DNA from: Escherichia coli
GTDB taxonomy: Bacteria > Pseudomonadota > Gammaproteobacteria > Enterobacterales > Enterobacteriaceae
Reading direction: 5' to 3' (one strand)
DNA length: 39,954 nucleotides
NCBI RefSeq assembly: GCF_003334255.1
Contig: NZ_QOWU01000053.1
Part shown: positions 32,494 through 34,116 of the stretch, in pieces
How the letters are laid out: each line of letters begins with the position of its first letter
Position numbering within the stretch: position 1 is the stretch's first letter
Translations under genes and position numbers: made by a program
Notes under the pieces: generated by a model
Told to the model about the DNA's origin: nothing
What the model saw: the letters and a program-made list of their open reading frames with translations, nothing else
Databases searched by the model: none

Positions 32494-34116
32494 ATGAAAA
32501 TTGGAACTGTGGCAGGCACTAACGACAGTACAACGACAATCGCAACAAATGATATGGTGCAAGAGCATGTTACCAACTTCACTAAAGAACTGTTTGGGTA
32601 TATTGCAAATGGTATAGGTGATGATATATCAAGTATTGCCAGGACAATGCTCGGTGAGGTTGTGGAAAAAATAGATGATTGGCAAATAGAACGGTTCCAA
32701 TAATCTATTCAAGATGACAAAATTTCATTTACCATACAAACGGATCATTCAGAAAAATATAGTATGCTATCGGGCATGCGTGCTCATATTCTACGTAGGA
32801 ATAATAATTATCAGTTTATTGTGACAATTAATAGCAAAAATTACGGTTGCTCTCTTGATAATACCGATGTTAATTGGTGCAGTATTGTTTATTTACTTAA
32901 TAATATGACAGTAAATGATAATGCTAATGATGTTGCAGTTACTGAGTCGTACAAACCCATCTGGAACTGGAAAATATCGCAATATAATGTATCTGATATT
33001 AAATTCGAAACAATGATAAAACCCCAGTTCGCTGACAGAATCTATTTCTCCAATTGTTTACCCGTTGATCCCACAAGTACCAGACCAACCTATTTTGGTG
33101 ATACCGATGGCTCAGTCGGTGCAGTTTTGTTCGCGCTTTTCGCAACGGGACATTTGGGAATCATGGCTGAAGGAGAAAATTTCCTTAGCCAGTTGCTTAA
33201 TATAGAAGATGAAGTTCTCAACGTATTGCTAAGGGAGAACTTTAATGAGCAACTTAACACTAATGTTAATACAATAATCAGTATCCTGAACAGAAGAGAC
33301 ATTATTTTAGAAAGTCTTCAGCCTTATTTAGTTATTAATAAAGACGCTGTGACGCCATGTACGTTTCTGGGCGACCAAACCGGCGATCGATTTAGCAATA
33401 TCTGTGGTGATCAATTTATCATCGATTTGTTAAAACGCATAATGAGTATCAATGAAAATGTTCATGTATTAGCTGGAAATCATGAAACGAATTGCAATGG
33501 TAACTATATGCAGAACTTCACGCGTATGAAACCACTCGATGAGGATACCTACTCTGGGATAAAAGATTATCCTGTATGTTTCTATGACCCCAAATACAAA
33601 ATAATGGCAAATCATCATGGGATAACTTTTGATGATCAGCGAAAACGTTACATTATAGGACCGATAACAGTCTCTATTGATGAAATGACCAATGCTCTCG
33701 ATCCGGTCGAATTAGCGGCAATTATCAATAAAAAGCATCATGCTATAATTAATGGCAAAAAGTTTAAAACTAGCCGGGCTATCTCTTGTCGATCCTTTAA
33801 TCGTTATTTTTCTGTTTCGACAGATTACAGACCTAAACTTGAAGCACTATTAGCATGTTCACAAATGTTAGGTATAAATCAAGTTGTTGCACATAACGGA
33901 AATGGTGGAAGAGAACGCATAGGCGAAACGGGGACAGTTTTAGGTCTTAACGCCCGTGACAGTAAACATGCTGGAAGAATGTTCAGCATGCATAATTGCC
34001 AAATTAACCCTGGTGCAGGGCCTGAGATAACCACTCCCTGGAAGTCTTACCAGCATGAAAAAAACAGAAATGGACTTATGCCTTTGATTAGAAGGCGCAC
34101 AATGTTACAGCTCTGA
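32494..34116 (+). pseudogene. yhiJ: yhiJ interrupted by an in-frame TAA at 32701-32703
   Basis: ATG 32494 has a good Shine-Dalgarno (GAGG, 6-nt spacer). The frame hits TAA after 69 codons and then stays open with no further stops to 34116 (69+1+20+450 = 540 codons). Confidence 0.6.

Follow-up and report, generated by a model that had tools for sequence, protein, structure and literature searches.

A premature ochre stop at codon 70 of yhiJ in Escherichia coli and its place among the natural null alleles of a dispensable gene

In the stretch of Escherichia coli chromosome analysed here (39,954 nucleotides, referred to as the window), direct reading and the open reading frame (ORF) listing show a frame that runs from ATG 32494 through 69 sense codons to a TAA at 32701–32703. 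Past this TAA the same frame, which is that of yhiJ, is open up to a TGA at 34114–34116, giving 540 codons with the TAA included. The ORF listing divides this region into a frame of 69 amino acids (32494..32703) and a frame of 450 amino acids read from an ATG (32764..34116). The question raised by this locus is whether these are two genes or a single gene that has been interrupted and, in the latter case, whether the stop is real and whether it leaves a functional product. The features of the frame are as follows.

32494..34116, + strand, complete yhiJ frame of 540 codons and its stop codon, broken at codon 70; pseudogene or null allele
32484..32487, + strand, Shine-Dalgarno sequence GAGG of yhiJ, 6-nt spacer to ATG 32494
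32494..32700, + strand, 69-codon head ORF, YhiJ residues 1–69, genuine coding sequence in intact alleles
32701..32703, + strand, premature ochre stop TAA, next base T; C>T at 32701 changes CAA (Gln70) to TAA
32704..32763, + strand, yhiJ codons 71–90, in frame, without a start codon, expected to be untranslated after the stop
32764..34116, + strand, 450-codon body ORF from Met91, as given in the ORF listing, without a usable Shine-Dalgarno sequence

The pattern is not a chance arrangement of ORFs but a known gene interrupted by one premature stop. The original prediction regarded ATG 32494 as a well-supported start, and this is borne out by the GAGG upstream of it and by the K-12 CDS, which begins at the equivalent position. 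The best duplex of this start with the anti-Shine-Dalgarno sequence has an energy of -6.9 kcal/mol. A second in-frame ATG is present in the body at 32776 (codon 95, Met95), from which 446 codons can be read; it is likewise without a usable Shine-Dalgarno sequence.

In strain K-12 MG1655, yhiJ is one intact CDS of 1623 nt that encodes a 540 amino acid 'YhiJ/YhiL family protein' and has its start at the equivalent of 32494. Of these 1623 nt, 2 are changed in the window relative to K-12, one being C>T at 32701 (CAA to TAA) and the other A>G at 32869 (Ile126Val). An intact 540 amino acid CDS from the same start, with CAA at codon 70, is found in K-12 and in strains G1/2, ET729, and H1. This agrees with the original prediction of a single nonsense mutation in a 540-codon yhiJ, with codon 70 likely to have been CAA ancestrally. 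The chromosome of strain G1/2 (NZ_CP060083.1) is collinear with all 39,954 bases of the window and has 3 differences from it. Two of these are synonymous, at 1822 (gadW Ile53, ATC/ATT) and 5140 (mdtF Pro243, CCA/CCG), and 32701 is the sole difference between 14,400 and 39,954. The comparison with strain G1/2 therefore points to a single C>T ochre mutation at 32701.

Two observations that would have spoken against a nonsense mutation, a yhiJ start at the equivalent of 32764 and a TAA in the reference alleles, were looked for. The former is annotated in no reference allele, and the latter is carried by no complete genome in searches with exact T-bearing 61-mers. The orthology of the gene is evident from its near-identity to K-12 yhiJ and from the shared neighbours yhiM, yhiL, yhiY, yhiI, and rbbA. 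Compared with this intact ortholog the gene has an in-frame premature stop where the closest relatives have a sense codon, as is characteristic of a pseudogene. Judging from these alignments, Q70* is taken to be a genuine and evolutionarily recent C>T ochre nonsense mutation, with CAA as the ancestral codon.

The 69 codons before the stop also have the characteristics of coding sequence. Among E. coli haplotypes there are 4 synonymous and 0 nonsynonymous differences within codons 1–69. A syntenic ortholog of 57% identity is also 540 amino acids long and has the same N-terminus; dN/dS against this ortholog is 0.43 for the head and 0.20–0.22 for the body. The substitution pattern indicates that the head of intact alleles is truly coding and subject to purifying selection, and that the annotated start is correct. 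The head had also been thought to align with the start of the paralog YhiL, which is encoded next to yhiJ. This could not be sustained: BLASTP aligns the head to unrelated parts of YhiL with E = 1.6, and homology between YhiJ and YhiL begins only at YhiJ residue 110. The paralog and the domain that is characteristic of the family are positioned as follows.

30625..32232, + strand, adjacent paralog yhiL, 535 amino acids, intact in the window, in the same AT-rich islet as yhiJ
33073..34002, + strand, DUF4049 (PF13258) domain, YhiJ residues 194–503, E = 1.2e-179

In the window the 535 amino acid YhiL has a DUF6860 and a DUF4049 domain. Across strains, yhiL and yhiJ decay independently of one another.

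Intact YhiJ is a member of the Pfam family DUF4049, and PF13258 is also recorded on the remnants of 450 and 446 amino acids in public assemblies. The family is extremely narrow; among 1.84 billion proteins it has 54 representatives at 50% identity, and E. coli fragments make up most of these. A literature search on DUF4049 found nothing, a search for sequence relatives of YhiJ in the PDB found none, and a PADLOC search for an anti-phage defence role gave no match. Faint Pfam matches to Metallophos (E = 0.013) and WipA_Phos (E = 0.031) are below the family threshold, and the NCBIfam model T4SS_Wip scores 17.1 bits against a cutoff of 300. These three faint matches span the same GDxxDR...GNHE stretch. 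An alignment of full-length relatives contains GDTDG, in which G202, D203, D205, and G206 are invariant, followed by GDxxGDR, GNH[ED], and further His motifs. The motifs run in the order of a metallophosphoesterase, the third reading GNHE in YhiJ itself; motif I is GDTDG and is without the His of GDxHG. Metallophosphoesterase-like motifs (GDTDG, GDxxGDR, GNHE) are carried by both YhiJ and YhiL.

The AlphaFold (AF2) model of YhiJ was made from a shallow alignment and has a pLDDT of 66 and a pTM of 0.63. Its best PDB matches in Foldseek are WipB (5nny, E = 1e-5), WipA (5y9o and 5n6x), and ApaH (9ojd). The E values of these matches are from 1e-5 to 8e-4, with TM scores of only 0.27–0.42 and a query model of pLDDT 66. 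Intact YhiJ is on this basis a candidate phosphatase of the PPP type, similar to WipA and WipB, with putative membership. The same would make YhiJ and YhiL, which are uncharacterised y-genes of K-12 with a very narrow range, look like candidate WipA/WipB-type PPP phosphatases. At the N-terminus, residues ~20–137 are modelled with moderate confidence as a single module in which a four-stranded sheet follows three helices. Helix 3 ends at codon 70 in this model, and Met91 is positioned between strands 1 and 2.

The overall reading, with a probability of about 0.85, is that Q70* is a nonsense mutation that reflects ordinary pseudogenisation under relaxed selection in a dispensable accessory gene. 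Ribosomes that initiate at ATG 32494 would end efficiently after 69 codons, the context of the stop being TAA-T; UAA-U is the most efficient termination signal in E. coli. The sequence after the stop has no match in Rfam to a known RNA element, and its predicted fold is not significant (z = +0.58). With this stop context and neither structure nor a known RNA element downstream, readthrough should be negligible. The 69 amino acid fragment would have no independent function. Untranslated 3' portions of transcripts are prone to Rho-dependent polarity and decay, and the remaining 1.4 kb of yhiJ, being mostly untranslated, would be open to Rho-dependent polarity and mRNA decay. Restart without a Shine-Dalgarno sequence would be expected to yield no more than traces of a 450 or 446 amino acid product, and the strain would be effectively yhiJ-null.

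A product of this kind is at the centre of the first alternative, in which the stop leaves function behind. Translation would restart after the stop, or initiate independently, at Met91 or Met95 and yield a protein of 450 or 446 amino acids in which the phosphatase-like domain is retained. The original prediction had likewise allowed for expression of the body from ATG 32764. E. coli lacI offers an established precedent for restart downstream of nonsense codons. In yhiJ an in-frame ATG is available at 32764, 60 nt past the stop, with that at 32776 being 72 nt past it. DUF4049 (194–503) and all of the conserved motifs are within the body, and the homology to YhiL that starts only at residue 110 marks the first ~109 residues as lineage-specific. 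The higher dN/dS of the head (0.43 against 0.20 in the body) is also in keeping with this alternative. Since the whole DUF4049 domain is downstream of Met91, a truncated product made at a low level could in principle keep catalytic activity, as judged from the domain assignment and the model.

Initiation at these codons, however, is poorly provided for. The best anti-Shine-Dalgarno duplexes before ATG 32764 and ATG 32776 have energies of -3.3 and -2.5 kcal/mol, against the -6.9 kcal/mol of the true start, and are at unusable spacings; a gap of 60 nt is also long for efficient restart. Both ATGs are in a small predicted hairpin, although the fold in which it occurs is not significant (z = +0.58). 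The position of Met91 between strands 1 and 2 of the moderately confident model means that a restart product would start inside the N-terminal module and have a broken domain. In addition, nonsense alleles show no excess before Met91, those of the body, along with truncation alleles there, being equally common or more so. Efficient restart at either ATG is unlikely on the sequence features of these sites, and the retention of function by this route as a whole has only a small chance of being correct. A more specific form of it is less probable again and is very doubtful. Here the N-terminal ~90 residues would be dispensable or regulatory, and stops of the Q70* type would yield a low-level, possibly deregulated phosphatase from Met91 or Met95. 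If it were true, recurrent early stops would represent a natural gene fission or isoform switch and not plain loss.

The second alternative arises from the distribution of the allele. In 4,284 of 5,426 complete E. coli genomes yhiJ is detectable, and it is absent at the megablast level from the other 1,142. T-bearing 61-mers in three local haplotype contexts gave no exact match in complete genomes (0 of 2,085, 0 of 2,182, and 0 of 4,042), the best matches always being one mismatch off. The contexts were those of the window itself and of the carriers L010 and L013; the 31-mer of the window was also searched, without a match. Three contexts were needed because k-mers from the window cannot seed on haplotypes with SNPs 7 and 10 nt from the site.

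Q70* is present in draft and SRA assemblies, on 75 contigs and on at least five divergent yhiJ haplotypes. The same CAA>TAA change (gene position 208) is seen in carriers whose yhiJ alleles are 40–49 sites from that of the window (L005, L007, and L009–L014), and the downstream flanks of the carriers differ mutually by 1–2.5%. SNPs that flank the site at gene positions 201 and 218, at distances of 7 nt upstream and 10 nt downstream, vary from carrier to carrier. Q70* must therefore have arisen independently at least two or three times, and the recurrence is, as far as the haplotypes indicate, homoplasy. Three of the carriers (L010, L012, and L013) also have a broken yhiL.

Recurrence of this kind could mean that loss of yhiJ is adaptive, with null alleles positively selected in some niche, or that codon 70 is a mutational hotspot. 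The identical C>T on haplotypes that differ in this way is in favour of such an explanation, as recombination alone is unlikely to account for the differing SNPs so close to the site. The many independent inactivating lesions known in yhiJ are also in its favour. The frequency of Q70* relative to other nonsense alleles of the gene was assessed through look-ups in public assemblies of the exact truncated products expected from other single-step nonsense mutations. These are counts of contigs and not of independent events, and serve as a rough control; entries flagged 'partial' occur among them, and these may be cut short by the end of the contig. The head counts combine all haplotypes, and the body counts are for one protein haplotype.

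Among the head alleles, W63* is found on 255 contigs, Q64* on 98, Q70* on 75, Q73*/R73* on 63, E58* on 61, Q69* on 25, Q82* on 25+6, E66* on 24, and S78* on 17, with no contig found for the exact K59* product in the public assemblies. Nine of the 10 other head nonsense alleles were thus found as exact products, on 6–255 contigs. Likewise, 9 of 10 transition-type nonsense alleles of the body are present, on 4–107 contigs (one protein haplotype). Body truncations are commoner still, with a product of 367 amino acids on 504 contigs and one of 320 amino acids on 136. The count for Q70* is therefore mid-range among the nonsense alleles within the gene, and codon 70 is unremarkable and not a hotspot.

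Lesions of other kinds are also frequent. W63*, S78*, a 1-bp indel, and an IS insertion in yhiJ were seen at the DNA level, and insertions of IS1, IS3, IS5, and IS903 in yhiJ are frequent among complete genomes. A head of 59 amino acids (P0003) is found on 178 contigs of other strains, complete genomes included, and is reproduced by a simulated -1 slip in a homopolymer run that precedes codon 70.

32666..32671, + strand, A6 homopolymer run in yhiJ codons 58–60, intact in the window

This slip is a commoner route to inactivation of yhiJ than is Q70*. A Logan contig (P0002) has a 77 amino acid head that ends in IERFQ followed by GDAANLLI, at the equivalent of ~32700. Its tail reads like the terminal inverted repeat of an IS1 inserted right after codon 69, beside the Q70 site.

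Sources of the T that would be particular to this site were also considered. A Dcm deamination hotspot was rejected, as sequence reading finds no CCWGG at 32701. Gene conversion from yhiL was excluded by the aligned YhiL codon, which is Asp, and by heads that are not homologous. A templated change within a quasi-palindrome (ATCT...AGAT nearby), noticed by eye, was dropped because the neighbouring base would also convert.

Such counts are what a very large sample saturated with neutral null mutations would give. All Q70* lineages are rare, and none is represented among the 5,426 complete genomes in the three contexts searched, so that there is no sign of a sweep; intact yhiJ alleles are under purifying selection, with dN/dS of about 0.2. 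Together with the mid-range count and the rejection of the Dcm site and of yhiL as a donor, this leaves adaptive loss or a hotspot with a slim chance. The nulls of yhiJ form a saturated spectrum in which Q70* is unexceptional and early stops are not preferentially enriched. A dispensable gene in very large genome collections carries almost every single-step null, often on several backgrounds. Because of this saturation, recurrence of an identical nonsense SNP is not by itself evidence for selection or for a hotspot.

A third alternative is that the T at 32701 arose by error in the sequencing or assembly of a draft and that yhiJ of the strain is really intact, as the original prediction had allowed. 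The window seems to derive from a short-read draft contig (DABAWQ010000054.1), and the T is found in none of the 5,426 complete genomes as an exact 61-mer in the three haplotype contexts. From 26,494 to its end the window is base-for-base the same as two excerpts (L008 and L018) of the 40,233-nt contig DABAWQ010000054.1 in the draft assembly GCA_012531115.1. These were rejected as independent confirmation of the T, being from the same contig as the window. Independent evidence comes from the assembly GCA_958337245.1 (L006), which has 15 differences from the window over 12.2 kb and shares both the T and the yhiJ haplotype on which it occurs. This assembly represents a closely related but non-identical isolate, which makes a sequencing error unlikely. 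The exact 69 amino acid product is moreover called on the 75 contigs, which are from NCBI, ENA, and Logan. Position 32701 is outside any homopolymer, and consensus substitution errors are very rare in Illumina assemblies. On the sequences compared, Q70* is a real, heritable allele; a consensus error at this position is unlikely, and an intact yhiJ in this strain is highly improbable. Of the 15 differences from GCA_958337245.1, 12 cluster in ~120 nt of rbbA (37537–37657), in what looks like a short recombination patch.

Decoding of the TAA by programmed readthrough or a suppressor tRNA to give full-length YhiJ has a negligible probability, since the 470 codons of open frame past the stop that would favour it are expected after any recent nonsense mutation, while the stop is not conserved (close relatives have CAA, and complete genomes contain no exact T-bearing 61-mer), is in the strongest termination context of E. 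coli, and is followed by no recoding RNA element or significant structure.

The locus has the order gadW...yhiM-yhiL-yhiJ-yhiY-yhiI-rbbA-yhhJ of the E. coli chromosome, within which yhiL and yhiJ (30200–34200 of the window) form an AT-rich islet of 32–38% GC between neighbours of 45–60%. This is consistent with horizontally acquired and probably poorly expressed accessory DNA. The Keio yhiJ knockout is viable and the gene is non-essential (PMC3423039). In one small experiment the Keio mutant was without growth on myo-inositol, a tentative phenotype (PMC3423039). A 20.8-kb IS5-mediated deletion annotated [yhiJ]-yhiS, which arose in a ciprofloxacin evolution experiment, was also tolerated (PMC11633386).

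Other features of the window were noted. The region at ~12500–14420 (slp to arsC) is strain-variable, the window and strain G1/2 being without genes for a permease and an ArsR/SmtB-type HTH regulator. Both genes are found there in strains H1 and ET729, so that these genomes lose collinearity with the window upstream of ~14,400. Inside yhiL, at 30891–30980, Rfam gives a match to the C0719 sRNA that stays below the gathering threshold (18.5 bits against 50, E = 0.23) and is most likely due to chance. At its end (39570–39954) the window cuts into yhhI, a minus-strand gene for an ISAs1-like ISEc1 transposase.

For annotation, the locus should be given as a single yhiJ pseudogene (Gln70 to ochre) instead of a pair of 'hypothetical protein' genes with 69 and 450 amino acids. 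Gene callers in public drafts report Q70* yhiJ as split genes, with the start of the body at either ATG. The Q70* allele is already represented in public assemblies and matters little beyond annotation.

Of the known systems with which this locus can be compared, yhiJ of K-12 MG1655 (b3488) is the nearest. It shares with the window the synteny yhiM-yhiL-yhiJ-yhiY-yhiI-rbbA, the start, the 540-codon frame, and 99.9% nucleotide identity, and differs from it in having CAA and not TAA at codon 70 and Ile and not Val at codon 126. The state of the paralog is the reverse, with yhiL frameshifted in K-12 and intact in the window. The closest structures to the YhiJ model are the Legionella Dot/Icm effectors WipA and WipB, which are PPP-fold phosphatases, and E. 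coli ApaH. YhiJ is unlike these in having GDTDG in place of GDxHG and in sequence scores that are far under the family thresholds. The classic lacI restart fragments, like yhiJ, involve an in-frame ATG past a premature stop; the yhiJ ATG, however, is 60 nt away and without a Shine-Dalgarno sequence, and nothing points to restart occurring. The other natural nulls of yhiJ (W63*, S78*, the A6 frameshift, IS insertions, and the truncations to 320 and 367 amino acids) resemble Q70* as independent inactivating lesions. They also leave long open remnants that are called 'hypothetical protein' or 'DUF4049 domain-containing protein'. They differ from Q70* in position and mechanism, and several of them are present in complete genomes.
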